From: a phage
Strand: one strand, 5' to 3'
Assembly: GCA_016389475.1 (NCBI GenBank)
Contig: GCA_016389475.1_3042.1
DNA length: 64,000 nt
How positions within the stretch are numbered: position 1 is the stretch's first letter; the number at the start of each line of letters is the position of its first letter. Of the stretch, positions 6,144 through 50,184 are shown one piece after another. The notes under the pieces are model-generated. The model did no database searches and was not told the DNA's origin. It saw only the letters and a list, made by a program, of their open reading frames with translations. A program made the translations under genes and the position numbers.

Positions 6144-6170
6144 ATCAATTCCTCAAAGGTAATTCATATG

Positions 6171-6203
6171 TTAATAATACCACGGTTTGAACTTCTTGTA
6201 AAC
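6171..6203 (-). promoter_or_regulatory. early (sigma70-type) promoter
   Basis: Minus strand GTTTAC (6203-6198), 18-nt spacer, TATTATTA; downstream GAGG and ATG 6143. Confidence 0.5.
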
Positions 6204-6284
6204 AACTTTGTGAAAATTATTTTAGGGAATGATAAGAAGTGAACGATAGCTTAGAATGGTAATATACAGAATGTGAGAAAGAAA

Positions 6285-18799: not shown

Positions 18800-18832
18800 T
18801 TTATTCTCCAAATCCGTATCAGTTGATAGTTG

Positions 18833-18863
18833 TATAGTACCATAAAGCTTTATGCTTGTAAAC
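18833..18863 (-). promoter_or_regulatory. early (sigma70-type) promoter for the P-loop NTPase gene
   Basis: Minus strand GTTTAC (18863-18858), -10 TACTATA (18839-18833); perfect 14-bp palindrome cataaagctttatg (18841-18854) in the spacer. Confidence 0.5.
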
Positions 18864-18893
18864 CGTTTTGTGAAAAATTTTTGAAATAAAAAA

Positions 18894-18911
18894 GGGAGCC
18901 CGAAGGCTCCC
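18894..18911 (-). terminator. intrinsic terminator after the nucleotidyltransferase gene
   Basis: Minus RNA GGGAGCC-UUCG-GGCUCCC followed by UUUUUUAUUUC; 3 nt after the stop. Confidence 0.7.
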
Positions 18912-18913
18912 TA

Positions 18914-28783: not shown

Positions 28784-29257
28784 TTATTTGAACGATTTAA
28801 CGTACTGAATAGAACCTTTACTATTTACAAAGGCAATTTTACCATTTTTATTATACATGGTAGCAGTACGCTGATAGCCATAAGTTTGCTTACCAGATTG
28901 ATAACCAACTAATGCAAAATTATCTTCACCCATTTTATTCTGTTTAGCGCGAATGCGTTCATGACCATGTGCCATAAGAACCTTAGCATCACCAGTTACA
29001 ATGGATCGACGAGTTTTTTCATCTTCAACTGTATTAACAAAGTCGTCAAATGAATCAAATTTAGCATGAGATTTATTATACAGTTTTCCATCTACTGCAT
29101 AATTATATCCCTGTACATCCATCTCAACTTCTGTACCATCATCCAATACAGCAGTAATTTTCTGTCCTTTTTTAAATTTCAAAAGATCAGTAAAAGATTC
29201 AGCAATAATTTGAGAATTAATAGCTGCTTCAGTGATAAATTCTTGATATGTTTTCAT
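28784..29257 (-). CDS. internal-protein-like virion protein with capsid-targeting sequence
   Basis: Begins MKTYQEFITEAA (CTS pattern with L/I-x-E prohead-protease site); lysine-rich; early promoter 29311-29341 upstream. Confidence 0.6.
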   Translation of the reverse strand: MKTYQEFITEAAINSQIIAESFTDLLKFKKGQKITAVLDDGTEVEMDVQGYNYAVDGKLYNKSHAKFDSFDDFVNTVEDEKTRRSIVTGDAKVLMAHGHERIRAKQNKMGEDNFALVGYQSGKQTYGYQRTATMYNKNGKIAFVNSKGSIQYVKSFK

Positions 29258-29310: not shown

Positions 29311-29341
29311 TATACTATCACAATTCTAGGAGAAAGTAAAC
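29311..29341 (-). promoter_or_regulatory. early (sigma70-type) promoter for the CTS-protein gene 28784-29257
   Basis: Minus strand GTTTAC (29341-29336), spacer, -10 TAGTATA. Confidence 0.5.
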
Positions 29342-29345
29342 AACT

Positions 29346-29876
<531 letters not shown>

Positions 29877-32831: not shown

Positions 32832-33321
32832 TATTTTTAATTTTACAAATTCGTTCAGCTTCTTCAACAGCGGCAGTGATAATGCTTTTAGCTATAGGAG
32901 TACTAATACTAGTAGCTTTTACACTTAACACGATTTCTTTATCTTTACCAGGCCAACCCCACGATTTTTCACCATGAGTGCCTTTAATTACAGCAGACAC
33001 CTCAAGTGAGCATCCATTATCACATGTTTTTACATTAACAACCCAAGTGTCACTTTTCTCAACCGGTTTATCCCAGTAAATATTGAGAATACGCGGGACA
33101 TCAAATTTAGCAGGGCAAATCTTAACCGTAAGACCTTCGCTTTCTAGCCAATTAATAAGAGGACGTTCATACATGCGGCGATGTGGGCTTTGAACTCGAC
33201 AAGCCTTGTACCCATTGCTTGCGGCTTCACTAAGCTCTTCTAATACCTGCTTTTGCATTATTGATAAGATACCATCAAAAGATTTTTCGGAAGTTTCATT
33301 CAGTTCGGTATAAAGAGACAT
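32803..33321 (-). CDS. hypothetical protein (172 aa)
   Basis: Track start is TTG; ATG 33321 with GAGGAAAA upstream. Confidence 0.55.
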   Translation of the reverse strand: MSLYTELNETSEKSFDGILSIMQKQVLEELSEAASNGYKACRVQSPHRRMYERPLINWLESEGLTVKICPAKFDVPRILNIYWDKPVEKSDTWVVNVKTCDNGCSLEVSAVIKGTHGEKSWGWPGKDKEIVLSVKATSISTPIAKSIITAAVEEAERICKIKNSLHLLNSMI

Positions 33322-33377
33322 AACAGTTTTCCTCAAATTATAGGCTCATAATATCTCAATCATGAGCCTATGTAAAC

Positions 33378-33641
33378 TTATTTCATATTATTGAAATATT
33401 CTTCTGCAATTTCGTCGTTATCATGATAAACTTTAGAAGACAGTTTAACATAACCTTCAGCAGTGAACATGTTAATCACAACCTTTACAGTATACCACTG
33501 ACCATCTTCATTACCCATTACTGCGTAAGTTTCAAACATCGGATGATCAGGACCGATAACTTTAATATCATTCACTGTACGACCAAAATCTTCTGAAACA
33601 CATTTCATAAAGAAGTTGAACAGTTCGCCGTAATTATCCAT
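33378..33641 (-). CDS. hypothetical protein (87 aa)
   Basis: Track start is TTG; ATG 33641 with GGAGA 6 nt upstream; early promoter 33684-33714. Confidence 0.5.
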   Translation of the reverse strand: MDNYGELFNFFMKCVSEDFGRTVNDIKVIGPDHPMFETYAVMGNEDGQWYTVKVVINMFTAEGYVKLSSKVYHDNDEIAEEYFNNMK

Positions 33642-33683
33642 TTCATTCTCCAAGTTGTTTTCTGTATCAGTAGTTGATAGTTG

Positions 33684-33714
33684 TATAGTACCATGGAAGA
33701 ACAGGGATGTAAAC
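33684..33714 (-). promoter_or_regulatory. early (sigma70-type) promoter
   Basis: Minus strand GTTTAC (33714-33709), 18-nt spacer, TACTATAC; CTATCAACTACTGATACAG leader. Confidence 0.5.
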
Positions 33715-33847
33715 AGTTTTGTGAAAAATTTTTTAAAAAGTTTTGGGGAATTCTAGGGCAAGGAGGGGAAATCAAAGGATAGGATAATATATTATAAAGG
33801 GTAGAAACTAAATGATGCCTAGAGAGGCCTGGAAAGGCCTAGATACC

Positions 33848-33878
33848 AAAAAGCCCCAACCTTTTGGTCGGGGCTAAG
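33848..33878 (-). terminator. intrinsic terminator after the CTS-protein gene (repeat copy 1)
   Basis: aaaaagccccaaccttttggtcggggctaag; minus RNA hairpin AGCCCCGACC/GGUUGGGGCU followed by UUUUU; 5 nt after the stop. Confidence 0.65.
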
Positions 33879-33882
33879 AATG

Positions 33883-34356
33883 TTATTTGATTTGTTTAGC
33901 AGACCAAATGCGGTCTTTAATAATTTTTTGGATGTCTTCAACATACTCTAGGTCATGAGCATGTGGGTTATCTTTAAAGCTATGAGCACGAGCTAGCTTT
34001 TGGCCTTCAGTTTTGATTACTAAAAGCTCTTTAAGGATAGCTTCATATTTGGAGATAATTCCTTTAACGATATTTTTTTCTTGTGCGACTTTAGGATCTG
34101 CTTTAGGAGCAGGTTTACCCGAAGCCTTTGCAAAAGCAGCGCCAGTAGCAACTAAACTTTTCCAGGCCATACTAACTGCATTTCCCGTAAATCCTTCCGC
34201 TTTCATGTCGCGTGCGAACTGAAATCGCGATTCATCAGAAGCATCTTTGTAAGAATATTTACCCGCTGCAATGGCTGCTTTTGCGACAGCTTGAATTTCG
34301 GTGCTAGATGCTTCATTTAACACCGCTTCATTTAAAAATTGAGTATATGATTTCAT
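33883..34356 (-). CDS. internal-protein-like virion protein with capsid-targeting sequence (157 aa)
   Basis: Begins MKSYTQFLNEAVLNEA; own late promoter 34393-34400; bracketed by two near-identical hairpin terminators. Confidence 0.55.
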   Translation of the reverse strand: MKSYTQFLNEAVLNEASSTEIQAVAKAAIAAGKYSYKDASDESRFQFARDMKAEGFTGNAVSMAWKSLVATGAAFAKASGKPAPKADPKVAQEKNIVKGIISKYEAILKELLVIKTEGQKLARAHSFKDNPHAHDLEYVEDIQKIIKDRIWSAKQIK

Positions 34357-34392
34357 CTTATTTCCTGTTTTAATTCGTGGATTTAATATACT

Positions 34393-34400
34393 TATTTATA
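34393..34400 (-). promoter_or_regulatory. late promoter (TATAAATA) for the CTS-protein gene 33883-34356
   Basis: Exact TATAAATA on the minus strand 37 nt upstream of the ATG. Confidence 0.6.
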
Positions 34401-34402
34401 CT

Positions 34403-34433
34403 AAAAAGCCCCAACCTTTCGGTCGGGGCTAAG
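34403..34433 (-). terminator. intrinsic terminator upstream of the CTS-protein cassette (repeat copy 2)
   Basis: aaaaagccccaacctttcggtcggggctaag; identical to 33848-33878 except one loop base; hairpin followed by UUUUU on the minus RNA. Confidence 0.65.
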
Positions 34434-34737
34434 CCTTGCGGCAACCTTGTCGGGGTTCCACCTGCTAAGGCAAGTGTTTGTACGAAACGCCGGGATTCGA
34501 ACCCGGTTATTAAGCAGTTGACGCTACTCAATATTTTTAAAAGGCCATATCTCGACCATATCCGAACGTTCCGTCAAAAACGCTACTCGGTTTACTGCAA
34601 AGATATTTCCTCGAATCGATAATTCGGTGCGCCGTTTCTGCTGTGATAGTAAAGAGCCAGAACACAGTAAAACTGTGGGAGGAAACTATACTCCAGGGAA
34701 CATCAGTCCGACGACTTACCGGTAGCGACCCGGTTTC
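34434..34737 (-). ncRNA. candidate structured small RNA region with a tRNA-like T-arm (no ORF)
   Basis: 304 nt ORF-free gap between a terminator and the gene downstream of tRNA-Arg; minus-strand CCGGG-UUCGAAU-CCCGG at 34490-34506 but no complementary acceptor strand. Confidence 0.3.
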
Positions 34738-35088
34738 TTAGTATTCTTTTAAAGCATCAACCTGTTCACGACGTTTACGCCATAAATCAATTACTTCATA
34801 CGCAGATTCAGCATTTCGAATTGGACGGCATTTATATAAAGACTTGTGATTTTGATATTGTGTAGATAACGGAATTTTATCTAAAAGGTCTTTACGTTCA
34901 AAATATTCGTAACCATCTAAACCAAATGAACGATTTTTGAGAAATTGCCAATGACCAAATTCGTTTTCGACATAAACATAATCTGCATGCTGATAAAGCA
35001 AATTAATTACGCGTTCAGAAATAACAGTATCATTATGATTAAAATAGAATGTTAAATCATGAACTACTAAATAAACATTACCTTTCAT
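34738..35088 (-). CDS. hypothetical protein (116 aa)
   Basis: ATG with GAGGAAAA upstream; lies immediately downstream of tRNA-Arg. Confidence 0.5.
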   Translation of the reverse strand: MKGNVYLVVHDLTFYFNHNDTVISERVINLLYQHADYVYVENEFGHWQFLKNRSFGLDGYEYFERKDLLDKIPLSTQYQNHKSLYKCRPIRNAESAYEVIDLWRKRREQVDALKEY

Positions 35089-35106
35089 ATTTTCCTCACT
35101 TATAAT

Positions 35107-35182
35107 TGGTCGAGGCAGTAGGGATCGAACCTACGACCCAGGACTTAGAAGGTCCTTGCTCTTCCTTCTGAGCTATGCCCCG
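35107..35182 (-). tRNA. tRNA-Arg (anticodon UCU)
   Basis: Manual cloverleaf: acceptor CGGGGCA/UGCCUCG, anticodon loop CU-UCU-AA, T-arm GUAGG-UUCGAUC-CCUAC, CCA encoded. Confidence 0.7.
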
Positions 35183-35186
35183 TAAT

Positions 35187-35262
35187 TGGGGTGACCGATG
35201 GGAGTCGAACCCATGACTACGAGAATCACAATCTCGAGTTCTACCAACTGAACTACGGCCAC
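35187..35262 (-). tRNA. tRNA-His-like (anticodon GUG)
   Basis: Acceptor GUGGCCG/CGGUCAC, loop UU-GUG-AU, discriminator C, CCA encoded; position -1 is U, not G. Confidence 0.6.
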
Positions 35263-35376
35263 ATTAATACCTACTCCAACAATCATGATGTCTTCACACG
35301 AAATTAAGAGAAGAGTGATCAGTTCAACCCCTATAATCGCGTCAAGTAGATATTAATGTGACAGTTGTCACAAATT

Positions 35377-35451
35377 TGGCGGACGTGATAGGATTCGAAC
35401 CTATAACCAATCGCTTAACAGGCGATCGCTCTGCCATTGAGCTACACATCC
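35377..35451 (-). tRNA. tRNA-Asn (anticodon GUU)
   Basis: Acceptor GGAUGUG/CACGUCC, loop CU-GUU-AA, T-loop UUCGAAU. Confidence 0.65.
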
Positions 35452-35455
35452 AAAT

Positions 35456-35542
35456 TGGTGGGGAGTGATGGAGTCGAACCACCCGAGTCGCAATGACAAT
35501 GAATTTACAGTCCACACCGCTACCTCTACGGGATAACTCCCC
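35456..35542 (-). tRNA. tRNA-Tyr (anticodon GUA), long-variable-arm type
   Basis: 87 nt; acceptor GGGGAGU/ACUCCCC, loop CU-GUA-AA, variable-arm hairpin GUCAUUGCGAC. Confidence 0.6.
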
Positions 35543-35554
35543 TAATTCATAATT

Positions 35555-35629
35555 TGGTGGCCCTGGGTGGAATTGAACCACCATCTGGCGATTATGAGTC
35601 GCTTGCTTGAACCTTCCAGCTACAGGGCC
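35555..35629 (-). tRNA. tRNA with CAU anticodon (Met, or Ile if lysidine-modified as in T4)
   Basis: Acceptor GGCCCUG/CAGGGCC, loop CU-CAU-AA, T-arm GGUGG-UUCAAUU-CCACC. Confidence 0.6.
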
Positions 35630-35630
35630 T

Positions 35631-35706
35631 TGGTGCTGATTGACGGAATCGAACCGCCGACATCCTCATTACAAGTGAGGTGCTCTACCTACTGAGCTAA
35701 ATCAGC
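35631..35706 (-). tRNA. tRNA-Thr (anticodon UGU)
   Basis: Acceptor GCUGAUU/AAUCAGC, loop CU-UGU-AA. Confidence 0.7.
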
Positions 35707-35711
35707 AAAAC

Positions 35712-35801
35712 TGGCGGAGGCGATAGGATTCGAACCTATGAGTCGCCGGAGCGACTGCCGGTTTTCAAGACCGGTGCATTCAACCACTCTGCCACGCCTC
35801 C
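35712..35801 (-). tRNA. tRNA-Ser (anticodon UGA), long-variable-arm type
   Basis: 90 nt; acceptor GGAGGCG/CGCCUCC, loop CU-UGA-AA. Confidence 0.7.
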
Positions 35802-35803
35802 AG

Positions 35804-35877
35804 TCTCCATACAAGGATTTGAACCTTGGACCTCCTGATCCCAAATCAGGCGCTCTACCAAACTGAGCTACACGGAG
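35804..35877 (-). tRNA. tRNA-Pro (anticodon UGG)
   Basis: Acceptor CUCCGUG/UAUGGAG, loop UU-UGG-GA; 3' CCA not encoded. Confidence 0.7.
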
Positions 35878-35887
35878 TAAATTAAAT

Positions 35888-35961
<74 letters not shown>

Positions 35962-35966
35962 AAATT

Positions 35967-36053
35967 TGGTGCGAGAAGTGGGACTCGAACCCACAAGGAA
36001 ATCATTCCGCAGCATTTTAAGTGCTGTGCCTTTACCAATTTGACCATTCTCGC
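35967..36053 (-). tRNA. tRNA-Leu (anticodon UAA), long-variable-arm type
   Basis: 87 nt; acceptor GCGAGAA/UUCUCGC, loop CU-UAA-AA. Confidence 0.7.
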
Positions 36054-36054
36054 G

Positions 36055-36127
36055 CTGGGAATAAAGGATTCGAACCTTTGCATCCTGGAATCAAAATCCA
36101 GTGCCTTACCAACTTGGCTAATTCCCA
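36055..36127 (-). tRNA. tRNA-Gln (anticodon UUG)
   Basis: Acceptor UGGGAAU/AUUCCCA, loop UU-UUG-AU; CCA not encoded. Confidence 0.7.
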
Positions 36128-36224
36128 ATTATTAACAAAGGCTCTTTAGCAAGAACCCTTGATGATAGAGGGTATTAATCAGTGCGGTATGAGTTAATAA
36201 TAACAAATAATTCTTAAAGCATAT

Positions 36225-36512
36225 TTACCATTTATGATAATACATATTTACGATGCATTCAAGATCTAAAGGATTCTTGAAAATATCATATTCAAGAGGA
36301 CCTTTTTCTGTTTCAATAAAGAAATCAAAATTTACTGTATTAAATTTACGATCTTCCTTCACTAATTTAACTTGAGAAGATGAACGGTCAACATAAACCT
36401 TTTCAACTTCAAAACATGTTAAAACGCCATAATCATCAATCAAGGCTTTAGCCGCGTCTTGATCATATTTATATCCATTTTCAATGGACGATACTTTAGC
36501 ATAAAGAATCAT
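36225..36512 (-). CDS. hypothetical protein (95 aa)
   Basis: ATG start; upstream of the tRNA cluster in the same orientation. Confidence 0.5.
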   Translation of the reverse strand: MILYAKVSSIENGYKYDQDAAKALIDDYGVLTCFEVEKVYVDRSSSQVKLVKEDRKFNTVNFDFFIETEKGPLEYDIFKNPLDLECIVNMYYHKW

Positions 36513-37082: not shown

Positions 37083-37110
37083 TTTATTCTCCTCAGTAGT
37101 TGATAGGGTA

Positions 37111-37140
37111 ATAGTATCACAACTAAAACCCTATGTAAAC
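37111..37140 (-). promoter_or_regulatory. early (sigma70-type) promoter
   Basis: Minus strand GTTTAC (37140-37135), 18-nt spacer, TACTAT; 7-bp inverted repeat atagggt/accctat (37103-37134) spans it; GAGGAG and ATG 37082. Confidence 0.5.
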
Positions 37141-37158
37141 AACTTTGTGAAAAATTTA

Positions 37159-37443
37159 TTACAAAAGATTTTTAGCAATAATTTTAAGCTGAGCTACTGA
37201 AATATGCTTGGCTTTAAACAAAGCAGTTTCTTCAGCAGGGGAGATAACGATTGTAGCACCATCTTTCTTAGCGGACCATCCATCACCCAGGTAAACAGTA
37301 CCTTTGACTTCTTCGCCATCAACCAGGCTAATCATCGGTTTACCTTCACGTCCTTTGTTTGCTTTAATAACTTCAGAAGTAAGGGTCGCTTCAGTCAAAG
37401 TAGAAGCGTTAGTGGTTGAAGTGAATTCTTGATAAGTTTTCAT
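37159..37443 (-). CDS. ipI: internal protein I-like virion protein with capsid-targeting sequence (94 aa)
   Basis: Begins MKTYQEF...; size and position immediately upstream of 57B as for T4 ipI; early promoter 37475-37504. Confidence 0.6.
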   Translation of the reverse strand: MKTYQEFTSTTNASTLTEATLTSEVIKANKGREGKPMISLVDGEEVKGTVYLGDGWSAKKDGATIVISPAEETALFKAKHISVAQLKIIAKNLL

Positions 37444-37474
37444 TTTTATTTTCCTAATTAATTTTGATGAGGTA

Positions 37475-37504
37475 ATAGTATCACTACCTCATCAGCATGT
37501 AAAC
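37475..37504 (-). promoter_or_regulatory. early (sigma70-type) promoter for ipI
   Basis: Minus strand GTTTAC (37504-37499), 18-nt spacer, TACTAT; 9-bp inverted repeat gatgaggta/tacctcatc (37466-37493) encloses the -10. Confidence 0.5.
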
Positions 37505-37516
37505 AACTTTGTGAAA

Positions 37517-38201
<685 letters not shown>

Positions 38202-50145: not shown

Positions 50146-50150
50146 ATTAA

Positions 50151-50177
50151 GGGAGCCCATGGGCTCCCTTTTTCTTT
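50151..50177 (+). terminator. intrinsic terminator after gene 8
   Basis: gggagcc-catg-ggctccc followed by tttttcttt, 6 nt after the gene 8 stop. Confidence 0.7.
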
Positions 50178-50184
50178 ATAAATA
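50177..50184 (+). promoter_or_regulatory. late promoter (TATAAATA) for gene 9
   Basis: Exact TATAAATA 25 nt upstream of the ATG, just after the gene 8 terminator. Confidence 0.65.

Follow-up and report, generated by a model that had tools for sequence, protein, structure and literature searches.

Organization of the gene A locus

The window considered here is a whole stretch of phage DNA of 64,000 nucleotides (nt) (GenBank assembly GCA_016389475.1, contig GCA_016389475.1_3042.1). The subject is a single gene of its minus strand, here called gene A, which lies between the stable RNA gene rnaC and gene e.8 and is bracketed by two near-identical hairpins. Its open reading frame (ORF) encodes 157 amino acids (aa) and starts MKSYTQFLNEAVLNEASS. 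An earlier sequence-only reading of the window had picked it out as the gene of a capsid-targeted protein, and the frame stands as it was given there. The features of the interval are collected in Table 1.

Table 1. Gene A, its regulatory elements and the bordering genes, in the order of minus-strand transcription (slash, predicted cleavage site)
Feature	Position	Strand	Basis
rnaC (species 1 stable RNA), last gene of the tRNA operon	34481..34619	-	approximate, by homology to T4 and RB68 annotations
Hairpin 1, predicted terminator of the tRNA/rnaC operon, upstream repeat	34402..34430	-	stem-loop 34430-34407, U-run to 34402
T4-type late promoter element TATAAATA	34393..34400	-	motif; conserved position in relatives
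Ribosome-binding site AGGAAA	34361..34366	-	read from sequence; 4-nt spacer (34360-34357) to ATG; kept in relatives
Gene A, 157-aa precursor of putative head-internal, injected protein	33883..34356	-	ORF; PHROG 2280
Codons 1-15, putative capsid targeting sequence MKSYTQFLNE/A with second L-N-E (AVLNE/A)	34312..34356	-	tag match
Hairpin 2, predicted gene A terminator, downstream repeat	33847..33875	-	stem-loop 33875-33852, U-run to 33847
e.8 early-type promoter, TTTACA-17-TACTAT	33685..33713	-	inside repeated promoter element, family D1/D4
e.8, conserved downstream neighbour	33378..33653	-	T4 and RB68 annotations; PHROG 2678

The direct repeats of 31 nt noticed in the earlier reading (33848-33878 and 34403-34433) are present, with a single difference in the loop. 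A longer version of the repeat, of 36 nt (33843-33878 and 34398-34433), has 94% identity and a spacing of 555 nt. Two copies of the 24-nt stem-loop AGCCCCGACCNAAAGGTTGGGGCT, and no more, are present in the window when up to three mismatches are allowed, in agreement with the two copies noted earlier, and no occurrence is expected from 100 shuffles. A terminator scan scores both hairpins as intrinsic terminators of the minus strand, each with a stem of 10 base pairs (7 G-C) and a U-run (U5 tail). The folding energies are -20.3 kcal/mol for hairpin 1 and -19.7 kcal/mol for hairpin 2 (z = -3.6 and -4.3, respectively), values which no shuffled sequence equalled. The possibility that the repeat is an artefact of a generic terminator consensus was rejected, as the other terminators of the window (18880, 50150, 32146) have unrelated stems.

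The late-promoter motif of the earlier reading is there, 6 nt beyond the stem of hairpin 1 and at a distance of 36 nt from the ATG. The exact motif TATAAATA directly adjoins the U-run of the terminator in each of the ten Tequatrovirus-type gene A loci scanned and also in Klebsiella phage phiKp_22 (Jiaodavirus), while the spacer beside it varies among relatives and carries indels. The Mosigvirus locus has AATAAATA instead, one mismatch away from TATAAATA.

The gene A product and its capsid tag

The first ten residues of the T4 internal protein IPIII are enough for packaging, foreign proteins included, and the prohead protease gp21 cuts after L/I-x-E (PMC9026906). By suppressor (amber) mutagenesis of IPIII, targeting has been assigned mainly to residues 4 and 7 and processing to residues 8 and 10 (PMC9026906). 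The N-terminus of gene A carries all four of these mutationally mapped residues, Y4 and F7 for targeting and L8 and E10 for cleavage, followed by Ala. The cleavage motif is L8-N9-E10, with Glu and not Asp at position 10, and homologs have LTE, LAE, LKE or MTE in its place. In the alignment with gene A, T4 IPII and IPIII both begin MKTYQEFIAE/A. The tag is kept in homologs down to ~40-50% identity, as in MKTYNEFLNE, MKSYAEFLTE, MLEYSEFLKE, MKFKEFLAE and MLKFNEFLAE. When the six frames of the window were scanned with a regular expression for the tag, only two ORFs were returned, gene A and the Ip4 ORF described below, and none in 200 shuffles.

The window allele has a five-residue duplication in codons 6-15 (34312-34341), reading FLNE-AVLNE-A against FLTE, FLMTE or FLAE in homologs. 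This creates two consecutive L-N-E protease sites, the second at residues 13-15.

In the AlphaFold model (pLDDT 74) a four-helix N domain (residues 18-75) is joined through a disordered Lys/Pro linker (76-87) to a helical hairpin (88-154). Residues 4-15 have pLDDT <50 and are predicted to be disordered. The composition is rich in lysine and alanine, and the predicted mature protein, of 15.5-16 kDa with an isoelectric point (pI) of 9.4-9.5 and 20 Lys, resembles IPII* and IPIII*. The whole sequence (residues 1-157) matches PHROG 2280, a family of unknown function, with E = 4.2e-60. Profile searches gave no match to IPI_T4 PF11634, DUF7412/Ip4 or PHROGs 7857, 5341, 3155 and 4363, and Pfam returned sub-threshold noise only (LAMB1, ferritin-like, cytochrome b562). 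Because the mapped residues, the conserved tag, the disordered N-terminus and the basic, lysine-rich composition all agree, the gene A product is likely to be a packaged internal protein, as judged from sequence. In the literature no virion proteomics or genetics was found for the gene A family, the paper on the fPS phages being without virion proteomics.

Truncated forms of gene A, of ~93-111 aa, occur in several phages (P0006, P0014, P0024, P0038, P0040). In at least P0006 and P0014 the frameshift is at an A7 run (…AQEKISLKELSPNMKLSLKSF; window ~34064-34075), and either a sequencing error or a real inactivation may be responsible. At its C-terminus the metagenomic protein P0013 (94 aa), which otherwise belongs to PHROG 1411, repeats the final 32 residues of gene A (NPHAH.LEYVEDIQKIIKDRIWSAKQIK) with 88-93% identity, and this points to mosaicism at the level of domains.

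Gene B and the PHROG 2280 family

The tagged protein had been called novel. It is indeed uncharacterised, but it is not rare: it belongs to PHROG 2280, and 512 phage records contain a homolog. In a HMMER search of 1.8 billion representatives, homologs were present in T4-like phages only; three large Ig-repeat proteins which also scored were discarded as spurious, their scores coming from a repeated 'AGSYSYK' motif. Nearly all database names of gene A and of its neighbour gene B, described next, are hypothetical protein, the exception being one UniRef Klebsiella phage homolog called 'Internal head protein'. In the RB68 record Ip4 and Ip5 are labelled and gene A is not. No paper on gene A was found in the literature searched, and none there names RB51ncORF141c or PhAPEC2_134.

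The rnaC-e.8 interval can also hold a second tagged gene, gene B, with or without gene A in front of it. Gene B encodes 187 aa, starts MKTYAEFLTE/AAK and has homologs in 165 records (e.g., F25_0134, RB14ORF136). In F25 it lies at L012 2100-2663, and it has the same position in L014, L015, L017, L018 and L019. Its putative late promoter is no more than near-consensus (AATAAATA). Its terminator is a different hairpin, CCCTATC-TAAAT-GATAGGG, followed by the tail CTTTTTGGTATCTAGGCC as at the hairpin of gene A. In BLASTP, gene B aligned with IPIII over the first 12 residues only, that is, over the tag; gene A was not run in this comparison.

The PHROG 2280 profile matches gene A, gene B and the Klebsiella homolog. 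Direct comparison of A with B, by BLASTP or by hhalign with a single B sequence, recovers only the tag. A bridge is provided by the Tegunavirus fHe-Yen9-01, in which an rnaC-like RNA is followed downstream by a 52-aa ORF, then gp154 (MLQYNEFLKE) and gp153 (MLEYSEFLKE, a homolog of A). The gp154 protein aligns over its full length both with B (23%) and with a member of the A family (29%, E = 1e-13). When gp154 is added, a profile-profile comparison of the A and B families (hhalign) gives a probability of 92% and E = 6.6e-7 over the C-terminal helical domain, whereas the N-terminal domains are unrelated. From this bridge and this profile match, A and B appear to be distant paralogs, each with the tag, an N domain that varies and a C domain in common. 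The 52-aa ORF of fHe-Yen9-01 (gp156, L020 2144-2302, minus strand) has itself a near-perfect tag, MKTYIEFINE/IIVK, and may be a miniature internal protein.

In Mosigvirus and Jiaodavirus, too, homologs of A directly follow the cluster of tRNA and stable-RNA genes, which makes four genera of Tevenvirinae in all. Since the place is the same across genera, the locus would be older than the genera, and the empty state of T4, described below, is most simply read as a loss.

States of the locus and probable recombination at the hairpins

The hairpin census was made on the GenBank phage collection (an IMG/VR scan gave 5 contigs only), the states were counted in an evenly spaced sample of the ranked records, and about a dozen loci were fetched for the study of junctions. 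The hairpin was found at 1101 places in 652 records.

Among the fetched genomes the rnaC-e.8 interval exists in four states. The first is rnaC-hairpin-e.8, with no gene (T4, T2, PST). The second is rnaC-hairpin-TATAAATA-A-hairpin-e.8, which is the state of the window, RB68, G4507 and VEc20. In the third, rnaC-hairpin-A-hairpin-B-hairpinB-e.8, both genes are present (F25, pSs-1, F13076, CCU7, and G4500 with a frameshifted B). The fourth is rnaC-hairpin-B-hairpinB-e.8 (Killian, IME340). The sampled records comprised ~21 with A only, 7 empty, 9 with the left flank only and 1 with B only; all four of the left-flank-only records that were fetched contain A plus B. Gene A is thus dispensable and polymorphic, being absent from T4, T2 and PST and frameshifted in some phages. 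An alignment across T-even genomes had been suggested as a check on the cassette, and its outcome is as foreseen: the hairpins are constant and the content of the interval varies between nothing, A, B and A plus B.

All junctions in the fetched loci have the same form, the sequences being collinear up to the stem and diverging right after the U-run. T4 has one hairpin between rnaC and e.8, whose left flank is that of copy 2 of the window and whose right flank is that of copy 1. In this single hairpin a loop like that of copy 1 (GAAA) is joined to a tail like that of copy 2 (TTTTTGGTATCT), a hybrid of the kind that crossing over within the stem's 3' half would leave. The two hairpin copies of the Mosigvirus Shf125875 are the same odd variant, CCCCTTCC, in which two pairs are broken, and the sharing of this imperfect form suggests copying between the two. 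In phiKp_22 only the upstream junction of terminator and TATAAATA is conserved.

It is therefore very likely that the locus gains and loses genes by recombination at the hairpins. The description of the locus as a plug-in unit of promoter, gene and terminator holds insofar as the junctions fall in the hairpins. It does not hold for the upstream hairpin: this is the tRNA/rnaC operon's own resident terminator, and phages without gene A (T4, PST, T2) have a single copy of it.

Proposed mechanism

The explanation as a whole, that gene A is an autonomous late unit for a head-internal, injected protein, is regarded as reasonably probable. The tRNA/rnaC operon, of the early/middle class, would terminate at hairpin 1, and this would shield gene A from prereplicative transcription. 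The element TATAAATA would drive a gp55-dependent late mRNA of ~0.5 kb stopping at hairpin 2, which in turn would keep late transcription from entering the early gene e.8, served by its own early-type promoter. As a capsid targeting sequence, MKSYTQFLNE would bind the prohead scaffolding core. Cleavage by gp21 would follow L-N-E at residue 10 and probably also the duplicate L-N-E at residue 15. The resulting basic protein of ~15.5-16 kDa would be packed with the DNA and then injected with it, and in the new host it may disarm a nuclease or another early-acting defence. Turnover of genes at the locus would take place by homologous recombination between the terminator hairpins.

The last functional step is suggested by analogy. 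Ip1, Ip2 and Ip3 have each been reported to inhibit a single GmrSD variant (Silas et al. 2025, PMC12373910), and in the HIDEN-SEQ preprint the tagged protein Bas37_0260, encoded at the ipI locus, blocks McrBC (bioRxiv 10.1101/2025.11.20.689424). On these grounds an anti-defence function of gene A has about an even chance of being correct.

Several observations weigh against this explanation. In the AT-rich window the count of TATAAATA is at chance level (14 against 10.6 expected), so that the weight of the motif as a promoter comes from its conserved position and not from its rarity. The other two internal-protein genes of the window are behind early-type promoters (repeat families D4 and D6), and gene A as an exclusively late unit differs from them. 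A fold search of the AlphaFold model against the PDB gave nothing below E = 2, and gene A has no homology to known anti-defence proteins. The one virion proteome found for a carrier of gene A, that of SH7 by mass spectrometry, lists 13 proteins with no mention of an internal protein and is too shallow to bear on the question (PMC5238451). As regards turnover, insertion and deletion are indistinguishable at single hairpin junctions in comparative data, and the nearby homing endonuclease SegB may drive some of the exchange through co-conversion of the tRNA region.

Alternative explanations

The abundant internal proteins of T4 were long regarded as general head-filling or DNA-associated proteins. 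The gene A product could likewise be packaged by its tag and serve as a basic protein of this general kind, acting in charge neutralisation or in the kinetics of packaging or ejection, without a specific host target. The lysine- and alanine-rich composition, the pI of ~9.5 and the disordered Lys/Pro-rich linker would suit such a role, as would a fold unlike that of any known inhibitor, and nuclear magnetic resonance (NMR) has shown contacts between internal-protein lysines and the phosphates of DNA (PMC3012670). However, all capsid-targeted proteins of determined function (Ip1-3 and Bas37_0260) are specific inhibitors of type IV restriction, and the presence of the gene in some phages but not in others, its divergent paralogs in tandem and the exchange of domains resemble the turnover of an arms race and not a housekeeping function. 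A purely head-filling role is accordingly considered unlikely.

Another possibility concerns the hairpins, which could be alike through selection for termination only, the indels arising by SegB co-conversion or by illegitimate recombination with no exchange between repeats. A terminator followed by TATAAATA is ordinary in T4 late regions (e.g., between genes 8 and 9, 50150-50184), gene B ends in a different hairpin, and segB lies within ~1 kb of the locus in T4, PST, F13076 and Killian. Selection on the stem would not readily account for copies that are near-identical in sequence, including the bases flanking the loop and 5 nt on each side, or for the pair-breaking CCCCTTCC shared by both Shf125875 copies, which points to copying. 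Moreover, every junction examined (about a dozen loci) is inside the hairpin, the presence of segB does not track the state of the locus, and less than 50 bp of homology is enough for T4 recombination (PMC2839356). This account of the hairpins is quite improbable, and exchange between them is preferred.

It is highly improbable that the product is an unpackaged late cytoplasmic protein with a tag-like start left by recombination with ip genes or due to coincidence: no proteomic report of packaging was found in the literature for the family, the SH7 proteome mentions no internal protein and the tag departs from MKTYQEFIAE at 5 of 10 positions, but these five spare all four mapped residues, the tag is held in four genera while the rest of the protein falls to ~40% identity, paralog B and the Yersinia phage neighbours are tagged too, and the ten tag residues by themselves package foreign proteins (PMC9026906).

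Comparison with known systems

Gene A shares with the T4 internal proteins an N-terminal tag ending in L/I-x-E plus Ala and a small, basic, lysine-rich product. Like them it is dispensable, polymorphic among close relatives and organised as a single-gene unit in a variable region. It differs in its locus, which is rnaC-e.8 and not the e-denV region or trna.4-57B, and in its putative late promoter as the only one, and Ip1-3 have known GmrSD targets (PMC12373910). In profile searches its likeness to the named internal proteins is confined to the tag. Gene B and the gp154 and gp153 genes of fHe-Yen9-01 share with gene A the locus, the tag, membership of PHROG 2280 and a homologous C-terminal helical domain. 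Further internal proteins of T-even phages (Ip4-Ip6 and others) were reportedly described by Repoila et al. in 1994.

Bas37_0260 is like gene A in being recognised only by its N-terminal packaging signal and in occupying a variable slot between conserved flanks. It differs in its place at the ipI locus and in a function that was shown genetically, and it is set beside gene A here by description.

A close parallel for the arrangement of the locus is given by the PeSL and PmSL cassettes, in which a G/C-rich stem-loop terminator fused to a promoter flanks single non-essential ORFs (PMC2839356, PMC4122927). In these cassettes, as at gene A, the junctions of indels between relatives fall in the elements and the cassettes are transcriptionally insulated. 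Gain and loss by recombination at short regulatory repeats has been proposed for PeSLs, and excised mini-circles have been detected (PMC2839356, PMC4122927). The idea had already been tied to internal-protein loci by the same authors (Arbiol 2010, PMC2839356; Comeau 2014, PMC4122927). Conversely, the upstream stem-loop of gene A is fused to a late TATAAATA and not to a sigma-70-like early or a MotA middle promoter, the repeat is essentially just the hairpin of 24-36 nt, and the early promoter, that of e.8, comes only ~135 nt past hairpin 2. A stem-loop with a late promoter is described as a shuffling element in neither PeSL paper (PMC2839356, PMC4122927), and the term 'late promoter' is absent from the text of Arbiol 2010 (PMC2839356).

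The class of tagged internal proteins and exchange at regulatory stem-loops were therefore already established. What is new is the placing of PHROG 2280 in the tagged class, with the candidate third internal-protein locus, the A/B paralogy and the four-state polymorphism with its junctions at a 24-nt terminator. Silas et al. 2025 write of 'the two Ip loci' (PMC12373910), to which rnaC-e.8 would add a third. More tentatively, and with somewhat less than an even chance, PHROG 2280 may represent an unrecognised third locus which predates the split of Tequatrovirus, Mosigvirus, Jiaodavirus and Tegunavirus, holds tandem diverging paralogs and supplies injected inhibitors of defences outside the reach of Ip1-3, T4 being a hairpin-to-hairpin deletion derivative.

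Injected internal proteins are the best-understood route of T-even phages against type IV restriction, and each of those studied has a specific target. The gene A family is found in about two thirds of sequenced Tequatroviruses, including O157 typing, therapy-candidate and BASEL phages, and its absence from T4 may explain why it has been overlooked. Genes A and B would offer a ready list of at least two candidate inhibitors. The locus is also a compact natural case of cassette turnover at a 24-nt terminator, and the series hairpin-TATAAATA-tag could serve as a defined neutral insertion site for engineered packaged cargo.

Genomic context and other internal-protein genes

Over the 1.8 kb round the cassette, identity is 99.9% with Escherichia phage vB_EcoM-BECP11 and 96% with RB51 and RB68, and the taxonomy lines of the best-matching records read Tequatrovirus. 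The window represents a Tequatrovirus of the type of RB32, RB51 and RB68. As the locus is 99.9% identical to its counterpart in complete Tequatrovirus genomes, the genes for the prohead protease gp21 and the scaffold core protein gp22 are expected outside the 64-kb window. The minus-strand order is 11 tRNA genes, a 116-aa ORF, rnaD, rnaC, the cassette, e.8 and the e.7-e.1 series, and it is the same in annotated relatives.

The capsid tag had also been reported on two other minus-strand ORFs, and both assignments were borne out. The ORF at 28784-29257 starts MKTYQEFITEAA and encodes Ip4 (DUF7412; PHROG 3155, 'internal virion protein'; Ip4 in RB68). It lies downstream of denV, where T4 (L003 1417-2416) has ipII and ipIII between e and denV. 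Upstream of it is a D6 repeat (29312-29347) related to the early-promoter element described next. The ORF at 37159-37443 starts MKTYQEFTST, matches Pfam IPI_T4, the GmrSD inhibitor family, and fills the trna.4-57B slot with an IPI-family gene.

An element of ~66 nt is repeated at 6159-6224, 18819-18884, 33670-33735, 37096-37161 and 37460-37525. It contains an early-type promoter, TTTACA-17-TAYTAT, with an AT-rich block upstream, and fits the PST/T4 PeSL promoter consensus TTTACW-N17-TAYWAT, as does the e.8 promoter itself (PMC4122927). The e.8 gene has one copy on its upstream side, and the IPI-family ORF 37159-37443 has one on either side.

The window has 11 tRNA genes (35107-36127, minus strand) against 8 in T4, and segB is absent from it. 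The stretch 34434-34737 is 90% identical to T4 rnaC/rnaD. The 116-aa ORF (34738-35088, minus strand; PHROG 3355) extends over the 5' end of rnaD, directly next to which T4 has tRNA-Arg. ARAGORN did not call rnaC as a tRNA in the window, and an Rfam scan of 33000-36500 returned tRNAs only, rnaC and rnaD being without an Rfam family. In some GenBank records rnaC is labelled as a 94-nt 'tRNA-Lys(ttt)' (G4507, L002 2683-2776; L016 4281-4374).

A different hairpin (AGGGAGCC…GGCTCCCT) occurs in opposite orientations at 50150-50184 (plus strand) and 18880-18912 (minus strand). The copy at 50150, between genes 8 and 9, is followed by TATAAATA, which indicates that composites of a terminator and a late promoter are a normal punctuation of this genome.

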